DNA of 64,000 nucleotides from Escherichia phage AV111, in the sequence record OR352941.1. One strand, 5' to 3'. Each line of letters begins with the position of its first letter. Positions within the stretch are counted from its first letter, which is position 1. Positions 7,332 to 59,940 of this stretch are shown here, piece after piece. The notes beneath the pieces are model-generated. The model was not told the origin of the DNA. It saw only the letters and a program-made list of their open reading frames with translations, and searched no databases. A program made the position numbers and the translations under genes.

Positions 7332-7394
7332 GATATTTTCCTCATTTTAAGACGATAGGAAGATAATAACATGTCTTCCTATCATTGTACATTA

Positions 7395-8034: not shown

Positions 8035-8283
8035 TCAGAGGTTGATTGATACAACGCGTTTGATAAAATTCACTTCACTTACTGAAAGGTCTTTAAGACC
8101 GATTGATTCTAAACGCTGAGTAAGCGTCAACATCGGGATATAATCCCAATGAGTTTTAGTTGCTTGATAAGTACGAACTCCATTAGCAATTTCAACGTTC
8201 AAATCGGAAATGGTAATGAATATCGGACGTTCGTTATTTACATTAAGAGATAGAACAACTTTCTTTGAATCTAAACTAATCAT
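8035..8283 (-). CDS. hypothetical protein
   Basis: 82 aa ORF. Confidence 0.45.
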   Translation of the reverse strand: MISLDSKKVVLSLNVNNERPIFITISDLNVEIANGVRTYQATKTHWDYIPMLTLTQRLESIGLKDLSVSEVNFIKRVVSINL

Positions 8284-8462
8284 GGCTTAATTTCCTTCGC
8301 AATTGAACAGAAGATACCACGGTCACAAAGCATTTCACCAATTTCTGGATATTTGATTGAACGGTACCAAACATCCAGGCTTGAAACTCTGGTTATCTGT
8401 ACGGCATTACCATTGACAGAATAGTACTGGTCAACCTTAATTTCTTTATCTTCAATTGTCAT
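8280..8462 (-). CDS. hypothetical small protein
   Basis: Track N-terminus looks out of frame; MTIEDKEIKV start at 8462. Confidence 0.35.
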   Translation of the reverse strand: MTIEDKEIKVDQYYSVNGNAVQITRVSSLDVWYRSIKYPEIGEMLCDRGIFCSIAKEIKP

Positions 8463-8611
8463 TTTATTTTCCTCTATAGCAGATGGTTTAATCTTAACAC
8501 ATCTATTGAGGATGTAAACTGTTTTATGAAAATATTTTTTGATTTGAGAGGGGCACAAGGAGATAGTGAAGTGAAGATTCCAATGGATTATATTAGAAAT
8601 GAGATAAAGAA

Positions 8612-8630
8612 GACCAGGCGGCACCTGGTC
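8612..8630 (-). terminator. stem-loop, possible terminator
   Basis: GACCAGG-CGGCA-CCUGGUC hairpin at end of ORF 8629-8952, partly U-rich tail. Confidence 0.3.
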
Positions 8631-8952
8631 AATCTTCTATGATATCAGAGTCATATCCTAATGAAATCAAGGACTTTTTAAACTCTGCAATATTCTTTTG
8701 TTTCTTATCATTTAAAAATATGACAGGATAACGAATATTAAGTGAAGTGAATCCTGCACGTTTAGCAAGAGATACGATTAAAGGACGGTCATATTCAATC
8801 TTACCATTATTAGTGAGGACTTTATAAAATGTATAAGGAGCATTGAGCTCCTTTAAAAGTTTTGTAACAGTATAACATCCTGGACAACGTCCAACTTCTT
8901 CAGGGATGCCATAAATTTCAATCTTGTTCTTTAAGTTCGAGTTTTGTTCCAC
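8629..8952 (-). CDS. thioredoxin-fold CxxC protein (NrdH/glutaredoxin-like), GTG start
   Basis: KIEIYGIPEEVGRCPGCYT redoxin motif; no ATG in frame near the domain; GTG at 8950-8952 with AAGGAA 9 nt upstream. Confidence 0.5.
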   Translation of the reverse strand: MEQNSNLKNKIEIYGIPEEVGRCPGCYTVTKLLKELNAPYTFYKVLTNNGKIEYDRPLIVSLAKRAGFTSLNIRYPVIFLNDKKQKNIAEFKKSLISLGYDSDIIED

Positions 8953-18798: not shown

Positions 18799-19326
18799 TT
18801 ATGCGTGAACCGTCTTTAAACGTTCTTCAAATTTCCGAAGAGTACTAATACGTTCTGCTTTCTGTTTTGTATAGTTTGCAATACGTTCTGAAGTGAGAGC
18901 GTATCGTTCGTTTACTGTTTCTTTCATGAAGTCAGGGATTTCACGAGAAGCTTTAATTTCATCAAACTTATCGAGTACCGCCTGGTCTTCAGCGATTAAA
19001 TTTTCGTACATCTCGATATCTTTCTTGATAAACTCGATATCTTCCTGGGTTACTTTGGATAAACGAGATGCTTTATCCTTTTTGTACTGATCGTTAGTTT
19101 CACGAGACCAGAATAATGTACGTTTTTTGTTAGTGTTTTTGTAGACTTCCACAATTCCAACTGAATCGATGATAGCAATCCAATTCCAGCGAGATTTGAA
19201 AATCTGACCTCCGTCCACGGTAATCTCGTTACCATAAGCAATGTCATTAAAGAACTTACTTTGTGCTTCAGATTTAAATTTACCGTCGTTATAATTTACC
19301 AGGTTGAAAATATCTTTAGCGTTCAT
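18799..19326 (-). CDS. hypothetical protein
   Basis: 175 aa; early promoter 19354-19383. Confidence 0.5.
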   Translation of the reverse strand: MNAKDIFNLVNYNDGKFKSEAQSKFFNDIAYGNEITVDGGQIFKSRWNWIAIIDSVGIVEVYKNTNKKRTLFWSRETNDQYKKDKASRLSKVTQEDIEFIKKDIEMYENLIAEDQAVLDKFDEIKASREIPDFMKETVNERYALTSERIANYTKQKAERISTLRKFEERLKTVHA

Positions 19327-19353
19327 GTTTTACCTCCAGTAGTTGATAGGTCT

Positions 19354-19383
19354 ATAATAACATAACCATAGACCTTGTAAACA
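19354..19383 (-). promoter_or_regulatory. early promoter
   Basis: Minus GTTTACA-N17-TATTAT; AGGTCTAT/ATAGACCT inverted repeat. Confidence 0.5.
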
Positions 19384-23251: not shown

Positions 23252-23511
23252 TACCGATTGTGTTTTAAATGTTGATAAAGTTCTTCAACTTGTTTTGGGT
23301 CCAAAACAATTAGGTCATTTTCTTGACGAAGATAAATCCATCCCTTATCCCCAGGACCATTTTTACAAAACATCACCGTCGTCATATCATCATCTTCAGC
23401 GCTTTCAGGTAAAAGTTCAAGTACACCGTCTTCAGATTTTCCAGTATAATCGTAAAGCATAATATCCTCACATAATCTCGTTAACATACATTTGCAATTC
23501 GGTGTGGGCAT
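23251..23511 (-). CDS. hypothetical acidic protein (start uncertain)
   Basis: 86 aa ORF; overlaps 23468-23647, internal Met at 23460 possible. Confidence 0.35.
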   Translation of the reverse strand: MPTPNCKCMLTRLCEDIMLYDYTGKSEDGVLELLPESAEDDDMTTVMFCKNGPGDKGWIYLRQENDLIVLDPKQVEELYQHLKHNR

Positions 23512-23647
23512 CGGCCATCTTTTTCATAGCTCTGTTAATGTCGATGTCTCCATCTTCGCAACCATGAGCATTTTCCCAATCAGATACCGCATTAGCGTAC
23601 TCTTCAATCAAAAACATTAACTTAGAAATTTTTTCTTTACGTGACAT
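23468..23647 (-). CDS. hypothetical small protein (rI.-1 position)
   Basis: ATG 23645-23647 with SD GAGGAGAA directly downstream of early promoter 23675-23702. Confidence 0.4.
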   Translation of the reverse strand: MSRKEKISKLMFLIEEYANAVSDWENAHGCEDGDIDINRAMKKMADAHTELQMYVNEIM

Positions 23648-23674
23648 AACGTTCTCCTCTAGTAAGTAAGGTTT

Positions 23675-23702
23675 ACTATAACACAACCTGAGGAGAAGTA
23701 AA
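23675..23702 (-). promoter_or_regulatory. early promoter
   Basis: Minus GTTTACT-N16-TATAGT; flanked by CTCCTC/GAGGAG inverted repeat. Confidence 0.5.
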
Positions 23703-23714
23703 CTGATAGATGCC

Positions 23715-23742
23715 AAAAAGCCCCAACCATAAGGAAGGGGCT
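23715..23742 (-). terminator. intrinsic terminator downstream of rI
   Basis: Minus AGCCCC-loop-GGGGCU followed by UUUUU. Confidence 0.55.
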
Positions 23743-23748
23743 AGTAAA

Positions 23749-27299: not shown

Positions 27300-27327
27300 T
27301 TTGATTTCTCCTCTAGTTGACAGGTCT

Positions 27328-27355
27328 ATAGTAACACAACTAGAGGAGAAGTAAA
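27328..27355 (-). promoter_or_regulatory. early promoter upstream of regB
   Basis: Minus GTTTACT-N16-TACTAT; 9-bp inverted repeat CTCCTCTAG/CTAGAGGAG pairs spacer with the SD. Confidence 0.5.
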
Positions 27356-27360
27356 CTACT

Positions 27361-27576
27361 TTATTGATAAAATGGAGTTAAAGCCCAAGATTCTTTAGAT
27401 ACCATATTGGCGAAATGCCTCATCTCTTCGATTTGGCGTCGACGCTGGTCAGCATAGTCTTCTTCGCCTTCTTCCTTACAATCTTCAAGGTCTTCTTCAA
27501 GATACTTTAAGTATTCACTACAAATTTTGTTGACCTTTTCTTGAAAGTCCAATAACCCAGTAATAGTAGAAGCCAT
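27361..27576 (-). CDS. hypothetical acidic protein
   Basis: 71 aa ORF. Confidence 0.45.
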   Translation of the reverse strand: MASTITGLLDFQEKVNKICSEYLKYLEEDLEDCKEEGEEDYADQRRRQIEEMRHFANMVSKESWALTPFYQ

Positions 27577-29720: not shown

Positions 29721-30134
29721 TTAGTAAATTGATTTGCCATAATATTTATACCAAGACGGCCGTTGAGCAATTTTTTCATCTAAGCGTGCTTGACTTATCG
29801 CAATGGACGCTTCGGACGGGTCATAATTATTACGAAATTCGGCAGGGATGTCGGAAATATCCTGGACTGTCGTGTCCTTGATTTTGAAACCACGTTTCAA
29901 GCATTCAGCGATTAGCTCGATTTGACGTAAACGTAAAAATTCGAGTTTGTCGTAAAAGAATGTTACGTGACCTGTGCCTAAGATAAATGTTGGAGAGATT
30001 TTAAAATCCTTTACACGTTTACCGTTTTGAACATGTTTACGGACTGCACCAAATACGCGTGGTAATTCACGATACTCAGCCATAAGATGTTGGTCGGACA
30101 GTTCAGAAACAAGTGTTAAATTGATACGAGTCAT
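29721..30134 (-). CDS. denV: endonuclease V (pyrimidine-dimer DNA glycosylase)
   Basis: [31 protein letters not shown]... matches recalled T4 DenV; ATG 30132-30134; early promoter 30162-30190. Confidence 0.9.
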
Positions 30135-30161
30135 AATTTCCTCCAAGTAGTTGATGAATGT

Positions 30162-30190
30162 ATAGTATCAAAACCCTTGGAGGAAGTAAA
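30162..30190 (-). promoter_or_regulatory. early promoter upstream of denV
   Basis: Minus GTTTACT-N17-TACTAT; CCTCCAAG/CTTGGAGG inverted repeat overlapping the SD. Confidence 0.5.
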
Positions 30191-30192
30191 CA

Positions 30193-30474
30193 CTATTTTT
30201 CTGAAGCGCCTGAAATATATTTTTCAAGACGTTGTTTCATTAGCGAGCCGTTCTTAGCGATTTCTTCCGGTTTATCGCACATACGTAACAAGGCTTCAAG
30301 CTTAGCGATATCGCTGGTACGTTCAAATTTGCGAGTATCTATCTTACTAGCAAGTTCAGAAATACGTGCTAATAGACTTTCGGCTTCAACCAAAGCTGCA
30401 CCTAGCTTAGTTGCAAATGTGTCAGTAGCTTCGTTAAGAATAGATTCTGATAAAAATTCACTATATGTTTTCAT
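30193..30474 (-). CDS. internal-protein-like (capsid-targeting leader)
   Basis: Start at [10 protein letters not shown] (ATG 30472-30474), ATGA overlap with lysozyme stop. Confidence 0.55.
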
Positions 30475-30959
30475 ATATACGCTTTCCAAGTTCCTGTTTT
30501 AAATGTTGAGATTACGCGTTTCGCGCGATTAGGTGTCTGACGATACCATTTAGATTGGGCTAGATTTACTGCCGCTTCATCCCAACGTTTCTGTTGAAGC
30601 ATACGAAGAGAATTAGTAAAACCGGCGACGCCTGATATACCCATTTGGAAGACCATATTGACCAATGCACACCGACGAACCGCATCTAAAGAATCATATA
30701 CCGGTTTAAGTTTAGCATTACCCAAGATTCCGCGAACGGCTTTATCAACGTCTTCATTAAATAGCTTTTCAGCCTCATCAAGGGTAATTGTACCGTTGCA
30801 TTTACGTCCGATCATTCTGTCAAGTTCAGCTTTAGCTACGGCTAAAGACGGATTCTTTGTTACTAAATGGCCAATGCCAATAGTCCAAAAGCCTTCGGTG
30901 TCTTTGTATAAAATCAGTCTAAGACCTTCGTCATTACGAAGCATTTCAAATATATTCAT
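30471..30959 (-). CDS. e: endolysin (T4 lysozyme)
   Basis: [32 protein letters not shown]... near-identical to recalled T4 lysozyme; 162 aa. Confidence 0.95.
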
Positions 30960-30993
30960 AATACCTCCCACGTTTATAGGAGGTATTTATTAC

Positions 30994-37832: not shown

Positions 37833-38138
37833 TTATTTTTTCCAACTCAACAACTTGTAGTGCCCTTCATTCGTACGAGGTTTATCCCAAGAAATACTAA
37901 TATATGATTCGCTGTCAATAGAAGTCGCCGGGTTTTTCTCTACCGTAAGACCTTCACTTTCCAGCCACTCAATAGTATTTGCGCATAAATCTGAAGAACA
38001 CCTAATCGGAAACCGGCAAGATTTTTCACCTTTAGCTGCAGCGTTATACATCTTTTCTAAAATACGCTTTTGCACGTTTTTAAAAATAGTTTCAGCAGAT
38101 TCTTCAGATTTTTTATTCAGTTCAGTGTAAAGACTCAT
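37833..38138 (-). CDS. hypothetical protein
   Basis: 101 aa; early promoter 38167-38194. Confidence 0.5.
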   Translation of the reverse strand: MSLYTELNKKSEESAETIFKNVQKRILEKMYNAAAKGEKSCRFPIRCSSDLCANTIEWLESEGLTVEKNPATSIDSESYISISWDKPRTNEGHYKLLSWKK

Positions 38139-38166
38139 AACATTTTCCTCTGTGGTTGATAAGTCT

Positions 38167-38194
38167 ATAGTATCATGTCCTTAGAAGAAGTAAA
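38167..38194 (-). promoter_or_regulatory. early promoter
   Basis: Minus GTTTACT-N16-TACTAT. Confidence 0.5.
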
Positions 38195-50902: not shown

Positions 50903-53900
50903 CAGTAAAAGCGCCAGCAGTCACGAGTCTCAGATTATCTAAATTGTCCGCAAACCAAGTTCAAATTCGCTGGGATGAGGTTGGCGCTAATTTCTACTAT
51001 TTTGTGGAAATAGCTGAGACCAAAACAGCTAATGGGGAAGAAATTCCCCGTAATAGTTATAGATGGACTAATTTAGGATATACCGCTGATAACAATTTCT
51101 TTGAGTCTGGTTTAAATTCATTAACAACATATATGATGCGTGTGGCTACAGCAGCGGAGGGATTTGAGCAGTCTGATTGGAGATACACCGAAGAGTTTGA
51201 AACATTTGAAATAAACGCTTACACATTCCAACATATGATTGAAATGCAATTAGCTAACGAGTTTATTTCTGAAAAATTTACAAAAAATAATACAAACTAC
51301 GTTGATTTTAATAATGACACGATCATGGCAGCACTGATGAGCGAGTCGTTCCAATTTAGTCCTGCATACACCGATGTGTCATCGATTAGAAATTTTATAA
51401 TTGGTGAAAATCAGTATCATGAAATCCAGGGGCATATCCAGGACGTATGTAAAGATATAAATCGAGTATATCTAATGGAATCTGAAGGAATTCTTTACCT
51501 TTTTGAAAGATTCCAACCTATTGTAAAAGTGTCTAATGATAAAGGCCAAACATGGAAAGCGGTTAAATTGCTTAATGACCGTGTAGGATATCCACTTTCA
51601 CGAACTGTATATTACCAATCAGAATATACGACGTATTTGCTCGGCTATGATAAGATTTTTTACGGGCGTAAATCATCCGATATTCGTTGGTCTGCTGATG
51701 ATGTTCGTTTCAGTTCACAAGATGTAACATTTGCTAAAATCGGGGACCGATTAAATTTAGGTTTTGATGTAGAGATTTTCGGTACATACGCGTCATTACC
51801 AGGAAACGTATCACGTATTGCAGAAGCTATTACTTGTAATGATGACTATGTTTATATTGCGGCCAGAGATAAAGTTCGCTTCGTTAAAACCAGTAACGCT
51901 CCTATTGATTCAGATCCATTATCTCCGACCTATTCCGAACGGTTGTTTGAACCTGAGACGTTTACAATAACAGGCAACCCTAAAGCAGTTTGTTATAAAA
52001 TGGATTCTGTTGGTGGAAGAATATTCGCTCTTATTATTGGTGAAGTCGAAAATGTTAATGACGACCCAAGAACAAAGCCTATTTTGGATTCCGTTGATAA
52101 AGGTGTATACGTTTTAGACCATGACGCTGGAACATTTAAAAGGATATTTGGTAATACCGAAGAAGAACGCCGTCGTATAGAACCGGCTTTCACTAATATG
52201 TCTACTGATGGTGTTGAGCTTTATATCTCTTCTAGTAATTTTAAATTTTTAGAATCTGATATTGTTGACGACCCAGAAACGCAATCTAAGTATGGACTTT
52301 TAAGAGCAGTTAAGTATGAATATCCTAGAGAATGGCTCGCAGATAAACATTACCATATGATGATTTTCGCATCAAACGAAGAAAGTAATTGGGAAACTTT
52401 TTCACCAACTCCTATGCAGTATTATGCAGAACCTTTCTTTAGTTATTCTAGAAAATCAGGCACACGTTCTTGGATTAATAACTCTGATAGAGCGGTAGTG
52501 ATTTATTCTGATTTGCTTTACACAAAGGTAGTGGAAAGCCACCCTAGCACTTCACCTGATCGTAAAGTTCATGAATACTGGAATGATGGCGATTGTAAGA
52601 TTGTTATGCCGAATATAGAATTCACTGGATTTAAAAAATACGCATCTGGTATGTTGTTTTATAAATCATCAGGTGAAATAATTTCATATTACGATTTTAG
52701 TTATCGTGTTAGAGATAACGTTTCTATAATTTGGAAGCCCACTAACGTATTCTTGACCGCCTCATTACAAAACCAAGAAAAAGAAACTTCTTGGGTTCCT
52801 GTTGAAGAGACAGGTCTAGCTGACCCGGATTTACGCCCATTACTCACTACAATGATGCCAGAGTCTTATCTGTTGGATAATACAAACTTTGAAGCATTTT
52901 GTGAAGCGTATATTCAATATCTTTCTGATGGATACGGGACTCATTATAATAACTTATTGAATTTGATTAAAAATAAATACCCACGAGAAGAACACGCATG
53001 GGAATATCTTTGGTCTGAAATTTATAAACGGAACATTTATTTGAATGCTGAGAAACGTGATTTAGTTTCTAGGTTCTTTGAGTCCAGAAGTTATGATTTT
53101 TATTCTACTAAAGGAACTGAAGCGTCGTATAAGTTTTTGTTTAAAGTTCTTTATAACGAAGACGTTGAAGTGGAAATTGAGTCATCTGCTGGAACAGAGT
53201 ACGATATCATAATTCAATCTGATTCTATAAGTGAAGATTTGGTTGGACAAACTATATACACCGCTACAGGTAGATGTAATGTTACATATTTAGAAAGAAG
53301 CTATTCTAAAGGTAAATTACAATGGACTGTTACTATTCATAACCTTTTAGGTAGGCTTTTAGTCGGCCAAGAAGTAAAAGCCGAAAGACTAGCAGATTTT
53401 GAAGGTGAAATAGTTCGCGGTATTAAAGGTAAAGAACTTGCCCAAAACACTATTGATTATTTTAATCGTGGTAGAGCTTATTACGTCATGAAAATAAAGT
53501 CAAATCTTCCATCCTCTCGATGGAAATCTGACGTACTACGTTTTGTACATCCGGTAGGATTTGGATTTATTGCAATAACCTTATTAACAATGTTTATTAA
53601 TACAGGATTAACGCTTAAACATGTTGAAACTATTATTAATAAATATAAAAATTATAAGTGGGATTCCGGACTGCCTACGGAATATGCAGACCGCGTCGCT
53701 CGTTTAGACCCTCAAGGTAATGTAGAATTCAATCCTGTTACAGGTGAAGTAATTTATGATGCTGGACCTTATGCCGGTATCGAATACCCTTTACCTGCAA
53801 ATTATAACGAAGAAAATGATAACTCTATTTTCCAAGGACAATTACCGTCTGAACGACGCAAGCCAATGAGCCCATTATTTGATGCATCAGGTACAACGTT

Positions 53901-55920: not shown

Positions 55921-57734
55921 TGAAACAAAATATTAAAATTGGGAACGTCGTTGATGACGGACAAGGCGATTACCTTCGTCGTGGTGGTGCAAAAATTAAT
56001 GAAAACTTTGATGAGTTGTATTATGAATTAGGCGATGGCGAAGTTCCATATTCCGCTGGTGCCTGGAAAACATACCATTCTTCAGATGGACTTAATTTAG
56101 CTGCTGAATGGGGTAAATCATACGCAATTGATACTTCAACAGGGCGTGTTTCTATAAATTTACCTAAAGGGACAGTGGAAGATTATAATAAAGTAATTAG
56201 AGCCCGTGATGTATTCGCCACATGGAATATTAACCCTGTAACATTAATTGCTGCCAGTGGTGATACTATTAAAGGTTCTTCTAGCCCAGTAGAAATCAAT
56301 GTGCAGTTTTCAGACTTAGAATTAGTTTACTGTTCTCCTGGGCGCTGGGAATACGTTAAAAATAAACAAATAGACAAAATTACTAGTTCTGATATTAGTA
56401 GTGTAGCTCGTAAAGAATTTTTAGTCGAAGTTCAAGGTCAAACTGATTTTCTTGATGTATTTGGGTCTGTTTCTTATAATGTGAATAATATCCGTGTAAA
56501 ACATCGTGGTAACGAATTATACTACGGTGATGCGTTCAGTGACAATAGTGACTTTGGTTCTCCAGGAGCTAATCCTGGAGAAATCGTTGCATTAGATGGT
56601 AAAAACATCCGTTTAAGACAACCATGTAATATTGGCGACACCGTACAAATTGAAACCTTTTTGGATGGGATTACACAATTACGCAGTTCTTATTCTCGCC
56701 GCCAAATACGTATTTTAGATTCGAAATTAACAACCCGTCCTTCCTTAGAAGGAAGTGTATATGTCGCGGATTTGTCAACTTTGAAATCTATTCCTTTTTC
56801 GGCATTTGGAGTTAATCCTTCAGAACCGGTCAATACTAATTCTTTAGAAGTTCGTTTTAACGGTATTCTTCAAGAATTAGCTGGTACTGTTGGTTTACCT
56901 ATGTTCAGATGTGAAGGCGCTGATGCAGAAACTTCTACCGAGTGTTCAGCTTTAGGTGGGACTTGGGTTACATCTAACACCGATTATTCTATTGAATATG
57001 ATGATAACGATGCAACTATTGCACGTGCTTTAGTCTTTGACCGTAAGTTTGAAGACCAAGACATTATTGATATTACATGGTTTAATAACGATTTAGGCAC
57101 TTTATTAAGTATCGATGACATTTTAGATACAACTGATGAAAGGTATGTCGCACAAGGTGCAACCGTAAATGTGACCGGCGATGTGGCTTTGACCGATTTC
57201 AATAATATCGGATGGCCTAATGTAGAATCTGTTCCGGCATATAGCAGGGAATTCTCATCTATTGCAAATATTTTTAACACTATTTACCCTGTCGGTACTA
57301 TTTACGAAAATGCAGTGAACCCTAATAACCCAGCCACGTATTTAGGATTTGGTTCTTGGAAATTATGGGGACAAGGAAAAGTATTAGTTGGATGGAACGA
57401 CGATATTAGCGATCCTAATTTTGCATTAAATAATAACGACCTTGATTCTAGCGGGAATCCTACACATACCGCCGGTGGAACAGTCGGAACAACGTCTAAC
57501 ACACTAACTAATTCTGATTTACCTCCTACTCAAACTGACGAGAAAGTTCTTATTTCCGATGAGAACGGTACAATTATTATTGGTGGCTGTCAATACGACC
57601 CTGATGCAGAAGGTCCTATATACACCAAATACCGTGAAGGCCACGCCACAACGAATAGTACACACGTACCGCCTCAAGCCGTAAATAATATTCAACCGTC
57701 AATTACCGTATACCGTTGGGTAAGGATTGCATAA
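55920..57734 (+). CDS. 10: gp10 baseplate wedge protein
   Basis: 604 aa (T4 602). Confidence 0.9.
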
Positions 57735-58393: not shown

Positions 58394-59940
58394 GTAACAA
58401 TACATATCAACACGTTTCGAACGAATCTGTATATGTTGAATTTGACCCTACTGGGTCAAATTTTGATAGTTCAATAACCAATGTCCAGACGGCCTTAGCC
58501 TCAATTAGCGCATATGGTGTTAAAGGTGTTCCGGACGCAAGTGAAACAGAAAAAGGTGTAATTCAATTAGCGACGGAACAAGAAGTTCTTGACGGTTTTA
58601 ATAGTACTAAGGCCGTTACACCTGCCACATTAAATGCAAGACTTCAGTATCCGAATGCATCAGAAACACAATACGGCGTAACTAAATATGCAACACAAGA
58701 GGAGGCCATTGCTGGCACTTTAGACACTGTTTCTATTACTCCGCTTAAATTAAACCAAACTATTGATAACACGTTCTCTACTCGTTATTCAACAGAAACA
58801 ACTAACGGTGTTATTAAAATTGCATCTCAAACCGCTGCACTTGCCGGGTCTGATGACACCACGGCAATGACTCCGCTTAAAACGCAACAATTAGCAATAA
58901 AATTAATTTCTCAAATAGCTCCTAATAACGACCCGGCTTCAGAATCTATTACCGGTGTTGTGCGTTTAGCTACGGTGGCTCAAACACGTCAAGGAACTCT
59001 TCGCGAAGGATATTCAATTTCCCCGTATACCTTTATGAATTCTGTTGCAACACAAGAATATAAAGGTGTTATACGTCTAGGAACACAAGCGGAAATTAAT
59101 AGTAATTTGGGAGATGTTGCTGTAACAGGTGAAACGCTAAATGGTAGAGGAGCTACCGGTTCTATGCGTGGAGTCGTAAAATTAACGACGCAGGCCGGTG
59201 TTGCACCAGAAGGCGATGGCTCTGGAGCATTAGCATGGAACGCAGATGTAATTAATACACGCGGTGGGCAAACTATTAATGGTTCTTTAAATTTAGATCA
59301 CCTCACAGCAAATGGAATTTGGTCGCGTGGCGGAATGTGGAAAAATGGTGACCAGCCAGTTGCAACAGAGAGATATGCATCTGAACGTGTTCCTGTTGGA
59401 ACAATTCAAATGTTCGCAGGTGATAGCGCTCCTCCAGGTTGGGTTTTATGTCATGGTGGGACCGTTTCTGGAGACCAATTTCCGGACTATCGAAATGTGG
59501 TTGGAACGAGATTTGGCGGTGATTGGAATAATCCTGGAATTCCAGACATGCGCGGTCTTTTTGTTAGAGGAGCTGGTACTGGCAGTCATATTTTAAATAA
59601 TCGTGGCCAAGACGGCTATGGAAAGGATAGATTAGGTGTAGGATGTGACGGCATGCATGTTGGCGGTGTCCAAGCACAGCAAATGTCATATCATAAACAC
59701 GCTGGTGGATGGGGTGAATATCAACGTCATGAGGCACCATTCGGAGCATCCGTATATCAAGGTTATTTGGGTACTAGAAAATATTCCGACTGGGACAATG
59801 CTTCATACTTCACCAATGATGGATTTGAATTAGGTGGACCGAGAGATGCCCTTGGTACACTTAATCGTGAAGGACTTATCGGATATGAGACTCGTCCATG
59901 GAATATATCTTTAAATTATATTATTAAAGTCCATTACTAA
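58390..59940 (+). CDS. 12: gp12 short tail fibre
   Basis: 516 aa; position and collagen-like/beta-helix repeats; C-terminal receptor domain. Confidence 0.85.

Follow-up and report, generated by a model that had tools for sequence, protein, structure and literature searches.

Promoter-nested hairpins predicted to mask the Shine-Dalgarno sequences of regB, denV and two small open reading frames in Escherichia phage AV111

The stretch of 64,000 nucleotides (nt) from Escherichia phage AV111 analyzed here (record OR352941.1; hereafter the window) belongs to a T4-type myovirus of the RB69 group (Mosigvirus), with a patchy identity of ~96% to RB69 and ~77% to T4 around regB, and carries minus-strand genes throughout its 8-43 kb part. 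In this window, regB, denV and two small open reading frames (ORFs) are each preceded by an early promoter that is nested in an inverted repeat, one arm of which occupies the -35/-10 spacer while the other covers the Shine-Dalgarno sequence (SD). Our modelling makes it probable that the resulting SD-masking hairpin couples the four genes to their own early promoters. The anatomy of the sites, their predicted energetics, and the conservation of the pairing through compensatory changes support this mechanism. All coordinates are those of the window, and sequences are written on the coding (minus) strand (Table 1).

On the coding strand, the regB element consists, in order, of GTTTAC, TTCTCCTCTAGTTG, tgt, TACTAT, agacctgt, CAACTAGAGGAGAA, atcaaa, and the ATG (27299). 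The two arms form a perfect 14-nt inverted repeat, which a repeat search placed among the longest short-range ones of the window; it is the sole perfect inverted repeat of at least 12 nt with a loop of at most 45 nt, against 0.3 in dinucleotide shuffles. The minimum free energy (MFE) of the hairpin ranges from -21.6 to -23.2 kcal/mol, with a whole-fold z-score of -3.62. The orthologous regB promoter of T4 is a typical early promoter (PMC3014915 section 11). Neither the sequence nor a terminator scan revealed a terminator between the upstream 71-aa ORF and the regB promoter. With no terminator there and the ORF ending 11 nt before the 5' arm, read-through RNA into regB is to be expected, and because of the same distance the terminating ribosomes should not melt the helix.

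The repeat had been noticed in an earlier, sequence-only reading of this DNA as a 9-nt complementarity between the promoter spacer (27309-27317) and the vicinity of the SD (27340-27348). It is real and exact; however, its length was understated (14 nt, not 9), and one arm was off by one, as CTCCTCTAG on the plus strand occupies 27308-27316 rather than 27309-27317. The letters and the roles given to them are right when read on the minus strand. By coordinate, the arms had been exchanged: regB is a minus-strand gene, in which 27308-27316 is the SD side and 27340-27348 the spacer side.

To score such sites, the window was scanned for early promoters of the pattern GTTTAC, 16-18 nt, TAnnnT that stand ahead of an SD with its start codon, which gave ~20 early promoter/gene pairs on the minus strand. 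The score was the free energy needed to hold the segment from the SD to the AUG unpaired (dG_open), compared between a read-through RNA modelled from 40 nt upstream of the -35 box and a local RNA modelled from 7 nt after the -10 box, with start sites predicted from spacing (~7 nt past the -10 box). The difference between the two (ddG) is the read-through-specific opening cost; in the counts of orthologues, a ddG of at least 5 kcal/mol was taken as the masking threshold. Each site was controlled with 40 shuffles of its promoter segment, and whole-fold z-scores were calculated against dinucleotide shuffles. The pairing probability of the SD was dropped as a measure because shuffled upstream segments already reached 0.5-0.8, and the opening free energy was used instead.

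A large read-through-specific cost was found in 4 of the 20 pairs, each above all 40 of its shuffles; this position-specific comparison is a stronger test than the whole-fold z-scores. Apart from these four and an intermediate promoter at 38194, the difference between read-through and local RNA did not exceed 3.3 kcal/mol; since only four pairs show a large cost, the effect is not generic to early promoters. All four sites share one layout, with the 5' arm in the -35/-10 spacer and upstream of the predicted start, the -10 box and the start in the loop, and the 3' arm over the SD. In the MFE folds of the long transcripts the SD is base-paired, and the predicted dG_open is 10-18 kcal/mol for read-through against 1-3 kcal/mol for local RNA. 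Here, as in the orthologues, the predicted start leaves the 5' arm outside a locally initiated RNA, which therefore cannot form the helix.

The strongest of the four is regB (18.1 kcal/mol in read-through versus 2.7 in local RNA). At denV, where the arms are a perfect 10-mer inverted repeat (30176-30185 / 30138-30147), the corresponding values are 11.1 and 2.8 kcal/mol, with an MFE of -19.1 kcal/mol and a z-score of -2.89. The promoter at 23702 (11.9 versus 2.7 kcal/mol; 0 of 40 shuffles as high) precedes a 59-aa ORF, and the one at 8518 (10.0 versus 0.8 kcal/mol; 0 of 40 shuffles; z-score -2.17) precedes a 60-aa ORF. The sequence-only reading had pointed to denV and, near 23650-23700, to what is a weaker version of the arrangement (8 bp plus an inner stem), and had missed the 8518 site. 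Its functional proposal, namely that a transcript from the local promoter lacks the upstream arm and leaves the SD free, that read-through RNA sequesters the SD, and that translation would thereby be coupled to the local promoter, agrees with the opening costs predicted here (1-3 kcal/mol, against 10-18 kcal/mol that lie beyond 40 of 40 shuffles) and is, computationally, well supported by anatomy, energetics, and covariation.

Table 1. Features of the four predicted SD-masking promoters and of the gene e control (window coordinates; CDS, coding sequence).
Feature	Coordinates	Strand	Remarks
regB CDS, 152 aa	26841-27299	-	ORF; 96-98% identical to RB69-type RegB, 77% to T4 RegB
regB early promoter, -35 GTTTAC	27351-27356	-	T4-type early pattern GTTTAC-N17-TACTAT
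regB 5' arm (anti-SD) TTCTCCTCTAGTTG	27337-27350	-	within the -35/-10 spacer; pairs with 27306-27319 in the MFE fold
regB -10 TACTAT	27328-27333	-	in hairpin loop; predicted start ~27319-27322, from spacing
regB 3' arm CAACTAGAGGAGAA	27306-27319	-	holds SD GAGGAG (27313-27308)
Stop codon TAA of upstream 71-aa ORF	27361-27363	-	11 nt ahead of regB 5' arm
denV CDS	29721-30134	-	ATG at 30134
denV -35 GTTTAC + 5' arm TTCCTCCAAG	30186-30191 + 30176-30185	-	arm in spacer
denV -10 TACTAT	30162-30167	-	in loop
denV 3' arm CTTGGAGGAA	30138-30147	-	holds SD GGAGG
mobD.2a-like 59-aa ORF	23468-23647	-	ATG 23647; name from RB69 annotation
23702 promoter, -35 GTTTAC + 5' arm TTCTCCTC	23698-23703 + 23690-23697	-	precedes 59-aa ORF
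23702 site, -10 TATAGT	23675-23680	-	precedes 59-aa ORF
23702 site, 3' arm GAGGAGAA (SD)	23652-23659	-	8 bp + inner 5-bp stem AGGTT/AACCT
Fourth predicted SD-masking promoter (8518 site)	8460-8519	-	before 60-aa ORF 8280-8462 (ATG 8462), near nrdH-like region
8518 site, -35 box	8519-8514	-	
8518 site, TCCTC	8512-8508	-	
8518 site, -10 TAAGAT	8496-8491	-	
8518 site, GAGGA	8474-8470	-	
Gene e (lysozyme) hairpin ATACCTCC / GGAGGTAT	30979-30986 / 30961-30968	-	late-promoter-like TATAAACG in loop
Gene e CDS	30471-30959	-	downstream of hairpin

Short inverted repeats as such are unremarkable in this DNA: there are 22 perfect 9-mers with a loop of at most 45 nt, compared with 15.4 +/- 3.8 in dinucleotide shuffles, and 6 perfect 10-mers compared with 4.2. 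What is unusual is the position of the repeats and not the length of those of 9-10 nt. The opening-cost calculation applied to the T4 orthologues gave 15.8 kcal/mol for regB and 9.6 kcal/mol for denV. Across T4 positions 1-76,000 (NC_000866), ddG reached at least 8 kcal/mol in 6 of 28 early-type promoter/gene pairs and at least 5 kcal/mol in 8 of 28. The six are regB, denV, nrdC.8, e.8, modB, and motB.2, for the last four of which the predicted cost specific to read-through is 11 kcal/mol or more; the cost is intermediate for mrh.2 and 55.6. The masking type is thus a minority, comprising roughly one early promoter in four (4-5 of 20 in the window, 6-8 of 28 in T4).

Gene e provided a positive control. 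In T4, its hairpin was shown experimentally to cut lysozyme synthesis ~100-fold (PMC3014915 section 29). For the window copy, the calculation gave 16.3 kcal/mol in read-through RNA versus 3.7 kcal/mol for an RNA that starts in the loop, and in predicted strength the regB and denV helices match the gene e hairpin. The likeness extends to the principle. In T4 e, soc, 49, and I-TevI, the SD or AUG is likewise held in a helix of the long early or middle RNA, and a proximal promoter within the hairpin DNA yields an RNA without the 5' arm, which is translated; the arrangement is conserved in relatives (PMC3014915 section 29). The window sites share with this type the pairing of the SD in the long RNA, a predicted start between the arms, and conservation of the pairing in relatives. 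They differ in the promoter, as the internal promoter of the e type is a late promoter, TATAAATA, that serves to delay translation until late infection, whereas the window sites contain GTTTAC-N17/18-TAnnnT early promoters, with the 5' arm in a -35/-10 spacer that a late promoter does not have. Unlike in the e type, translation would be limited to the first minutes of infection and to the strength of the gene's own promoter. Hairpins also mask the ribosome-binding site in read-through transcripts of Aeh1 mobE, I-TevII/III, and segB (PMC3014915 section 29); those limit a selfish nuclease within a host gene or intron, and no early promoter is nested in their stems.

We propose that the spacer of a sigma-70-type early promoter also serves as an anti-SD arm (a part that would fall, in some relatives, to the segment from -10 to +1). 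Initiation at the local promoter, inside the loop, would give an mRNA with an unstructured leader of ~20 nt, which would be translated; in the case of regB, this leader would also be open to RegB self-cleavage at its GGAG. An RNA initiated upstream would contain the 5' arm and form a helix of 10-14 bp (-19 to -23 kcal/mol) that buries the SD and excludes the 30S subunit. The amount and timing of regB, denV, and two small ORF products would in this way be tied to their own immediate-early promoters. Two side effects would follow. The masked GGAG in read-through RNA should be spared from RegB, preserving downstream cistrons, because RNA secondary structure blocks this nuclease (PMC3014915 section 8; PMC1702504). 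The untranslated cistron would also be exposed to Rho polarity, the classical T4 delayed-early polarity on untranslated RNA (PMC2988021 section 19), so that the element could act as an attenuator without being an intrinsic terminator.

The first of these side effects could also be imagined as the purpose of the hairpin, with the structure shielding an intercistronic GGAG from RegB and from entry of RNase E/G, or acting as a 3'-exonuclease barrier for the upstream cistron. RegB does cut GGAG in SDs, including its own, and is blocked by RNA structure (PMC3014915 sections 8, 11; PMC1702504), and the masked SDs of regB, denV, and the 23702 site all contain GGAG. The consensus context for RegB with S1 is an unstructured GGAG (or GGAU) followed by an A-rich stretch, GGAGRAYARAA (PMC1702504); the regB SD, which reads GGAGAAATCAA, matches it partially and is predicted to be unstructured in the local transcript only. 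Yet the SD of the 8518 site (GAGGAA) lacks a GGAG/U motif, and the GGAG of T4 denV is already resistant to RegB through its 3' context (PMC1702504). Protection is moreover compatible with translational masking and so is more a side effect than a rival to it; as an explanation of its own, we find it improbable.

Related phages also support translational masking. The comparison drew on the regions upstream of RegB relatives, which were found in 43 viral contigs. At least 10 regB clades keep the spacer-to-SD helix with different stem sequences: CTCTAGTTG/CAACTAGAG in the window, CTCTTGACTG/CAGTTAAGAG with two G-U pairs in T4, and CTCTTTATG/CATAAAGAG, CTGTAAG/CTTACAG, CTTTTAGT/ACTAAAAG, CTGTAG/CTACAG, and CCTCATTTG/CAAATGAGG in further clades. 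When one representative was taken from each of the 12 helix-bearing regB clades, its own leader was the best partner of the promoter segment in 10, and the summed energy of the cognate duplexes was -254.7 kcal/mol, versus -160 +/- 10.8 kcal/mol for permuted partners (0 of 100,000 permutations as low). The masking threshold was reached in 27 of 32 distinct regB and 27 of 28 distinct denV upstream sequences, with a median ddG of ~11 kcal/mol.

Covariation was evaluated on an arms-only alignment of 30 distinct regB arm pairs, for which the GGA[G/U] core together with a linker of constant length (6 nt) served as anchor; a plain MAFFT alignment of the regB leaders had to be discarded for pair counts, with the 3' arms out of register. 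Paired cells made up 72% of the alignment, versus 58.8% with shuffled partners. Changes on both sides occurred in 12 of the 16 helix columns, and double-change cells numbered 78, versus 37.7 +/- 4.9 expected (0 of 500). The covariation score was 0.335, versus 0.122 with shuffled and at most 0.103 with slid partners. In reading these figures it should be kept in mind that the anchor forces pairing at columns 4-7 (the GGAG core), that only columns 8-16 are independent, and that kinship inflates the counts.

Several denV clades build the hairpin with a second geometry, taking the 5' arm from the end of the -10 box and the discriminator (L083, TAAGATGTCCTCCTA...TAGGAGGACATATG; L073; L088; L095); the predicted start still falls between the arms. 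The distant RegB loci (L058-L061) are without a strong helix; upstream of their promoter stands a canonical terminator. At the denV loci of jumbo phages of 345-378 kb (L084, L085, L086, and L090), we observed a composite terminator-promoter with no masking helix: the stem of a GC stem-loop contains the -35 box TTGAC, and its T-run is the spacer before TATAAT, as in GGGGTTGACTTAGGTCATCCCCTTTTTGCTATAAT. Such terminators of distant phages would likewise insulate the gene, as might be expected if all these phages had to shield it from transcription arriving from upstream.

Similar promoter cassettes also recur before different genes and in different phages. A near-identical 60-nt promoter/hairpin cassette precedes regB (L033) and denV (L065) in one contig and also denV of T4, the T4 denV cassette (L145) differing little from the one before regB in L033-type phages. 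This T4 cassette is also homologous to the regB cassette of the window except for a double change, CTCTAG/CTAGAG to CTGTAG/CTACAG, and the regB and 23702 cassettes of the window share both halves. The sequences of two close phages (L027 and L028) diverge completely just upstream of the regB -35 box and differ at 2 nt of the spacer, a pattern that marks a recombination junction within the promoter.

Near-identical cassettes before different genes and in different phages, together with a divergence that sets in exactly at the promoter, are what one would see if the repeats acted at the level of DNA only, as a recombination substrate or a hairpin or cruciform target of mobile promoter cassettes with no function in RNA. 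Such a role has been proposed for the shuffling of PeSLs (promoter-early stem-loops), a published class of cassettes in T4-like phages, and recombination at PeSLs has been demonstrated in RB49/phi1 (PMC2839356). Homologous recombination, however, requires repeats between cassettes rather than self-complementarity within one, and the stems differ between cassettes with each still self-complementary. Several stems, furthermore, use G-U pairs that exist in the sense RNA only (-22.4 versus -12.5 kcal/mol for T4 regB, -23.5 versus -14.8 kcal/mol for L095), and loops of 17-28 nt should disfavour cruciform extrusion. A purely DNA-level role therefore seems to us quite unlikely.

The T4 orthologues of these elements were recorded long ago under another name. 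GenBank entry X04567 (Valerie et al. 1986) lists imperfect inverted repeats C/C' at denV and D/D' at ORF 61.9 (= regB), which it marks only as potential terminators of the preceding gene ('put. stem-loop; pot. transcription terminator'). Both have the -10 box in the loop that separates the arms and the ribosome-binding site within the 3' arm, and the stems differ from ours (T4 regB CCTCTTGACTG/CAGTTAAGAGG versus CTCCTCTAGTTG/CAACTAGAGGAG in the window). The repeats of T4 ipII (B/B') and ipIII (A/A') bracket the -10 box only, leaving the SD unmasked with a ddG below 1 kcal/mol.

Hairpins of that second type are also present in the window. In seven of its 22 early promoters (42286, 41931, 37325, 34511, 33216, 23250, and 19381; minus strand), a strong hairpin encloses the -10 box alone, with the 5' arm in the spacer, the 3' arm at about -6 to +2, the SD free, and z-scores of -3.3 to -6.9; four of the seven share a near-identical cassette, TATAGTAGTCCTATCAAAAC. 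These hairpins fit the published description of PeSLs (PMC2839356 section 14; PMC4122927), and the masking sites resemble that class as well. PeSLs (Arbiol 2010, PMC2839356; Comeau 2014, PMC4122927) combine a strong early promoter with an overlapping stable stem-loop, then an SD and ATG, and the window sites fall under the promoter part of this description, having a sigma-70-like early promoter and an AT-rich upstream region followed by SD and ATG. Both are repeated in hyperplastic early regions, with examples of near-identical copies before different genes and of recombination junctions at the promoter. They differ in that the five published PeSL subclasses have the whole stem-loop upstream of the start, whereas at the window sites the predicted start precedes the 3' arm, which is the SD itself. 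PeSLs have been read as terminators or attenuators and as recombination sites (PMC2839356; PMC4122927). The PeSL papers make no mention of ribosome-binding-site masking, and the words 'ribosome', 'sequester', and 'hairpin' are absent from the 2010 text (PMC2839356).

This leaves the question of whether the masking hairpins, too, are PeSL-type terminators or attenuators for polymerase arriving from the upstream gene, with the overlap of the SD incidental. Besides the X04567 labels for C/C' and D/D', it would fit such a role that one RB49/phi1 PeSL stem-loop lowered lacZ expression like rrnB T1 (PMC2839356 section 14), that hairpins around the -10 box alone are as frequent as described above, and that the two types alternate at one orthologous gene. 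The structures themselves argue otherwise: there is no U-tract after the 3' arm (AAAUCAAAAUG, AAUUAUG), the tails are A-rich, and the loops are 17-28 nt long. The sites were not called in the terminator scan of the window, and real terminators in the same genomes look different, with a GC stem, a tetraloop, and a T-run. A terminator, moreover, needs no SD in its 3' arm, yet the SD arm is conserved at regB and denV through two geometries. We consider the terminator explanation unlikely, if somewhat less so than the two discussed before. The specific identity of an intrinsic terminator was rejected on the grounds of the large loops, the A-rich tails, and absence from the terminator scan, and an RNase III site was set aside by inference from the stem length of 10-14 bp.

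Several observations weigh against translational masking or narrow its scope. Overall, the sense strand folds no better than the antisense strand (Wilcoxon p = 0.42), which agrees with a DNA-level palindrome as well as with a structure acting in sense RNA. Many of the differences that look compensatory may be swaps of whole cassettes rather than stepwise mutations. With a leader of only ~20 nt, any hairpin whose 3' arm lies past the start would often overlap the SD. The 23702 site, the weakest, has a whole-fold z-score of only -1.01, which is not significant, with 27 of 200 shuffles folding as well; like the 8518 site, it is already preceded at a short distance by a canonical terminator. The gene at 19326 (nrdC.8-like; window 19326-19381) has a -10-bracketing hairpin with a ddG of 3.6-4.8 kcal/mol, and among its orthologues (L148-L152, L154; T4 ATG 53885) the hairpin brackets the -10 box in RB69-like phages and masks the SD in T4-type phages and another clade, with a ddG of 14-18 kcal/mol. 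It thus seems that one hairpin type can stand in for the other, and masking may be only one among several solutions of equal effect; because the types alternate at this locus, SD masking may not be the only selected property. Finally, we infer from the models, rather than observe, where transcription starts, that read-through RNA exists, and that translation is blocked.

The orthologues of the 19326 gene had been considered as a negative control and were dropped, as T4-type phages have masking hairpins there. Some regB and denV relatives (L035, L054, and L078) combine both hairpin types in two-tier structures.

The principle by which a promoter inside a hairpin frees a downstream gene for translation is already known for the late promoters of T4; here, it would be built on an immediate-early promoter and overlap the PeSL class. 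We found no explicit earlier statement of it for early promoters in the literature searched, whose coverage did not extend to the 1980s T4 promoter papers and the main T4 review. It is conceivable, though we hold this only tentatively and think it less likely than not to prove general, that SD-masking promoters constitute a distinct, widespread subclass of T4-type early cassettes, that is, self-insulating modules carrying their own anti-SD.

On that reading, the gene behind such a cassette would depend on its own promoter alone wherever the cassette is shuffled. Read-through RNA would go untranslated, escape RegB at the masked GGAG, and be exposed to Rho polarity, all at once, and PeSL 'attenuation' would be linked to translation instead of intrinsic termination. 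If translational masking is correct, RegB, a nuclease needed briefly and in a small amount, and endonuclease V would be tied to their immediate-early promoters despite the dense tandem promoters of the region. Stem-loops that have been classed since 1986 as putative terminators, and afterwards as PeSLs, would receive a translational reading, and a simple rule would become available for predicting which early genes are insulated from read-through. In phage engineering, deleting or moving such a promoter would also remove or move the anti-SD element. The finding opens no new field, the principle being textbook T4 biology for late genes.

A few further features of the window were recorded beside these sites. 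A canonical intrinsic terminator, GCCCCTTCCTTATGGTTGGGGCTTTTTGG (minus strand, 23716-23745), ends up ~10 nt ahead of the -35 box at the 23702 site; with this terminator and the hairpin, the 59-aa ORF would be insulated twice. Another canonical terminator is found ~90 nt upstream of the 8518 promoter (about 8605-8632). Other perfect 10-nt inverted repeats with short loops occur at 7354-7383, 53593-53643, 56558-56582, and 58439-58462, in a number within chance. The intermediate promoter (38138-38194, minus strand) pairs TTCTTCT with AGAGGAA through G-U pairs and has a predicted opening cost of 7.9 kcal/mol in read-through versus 1.7 kcal/mol in local RNA, with 6 of 40 shuffles as high.

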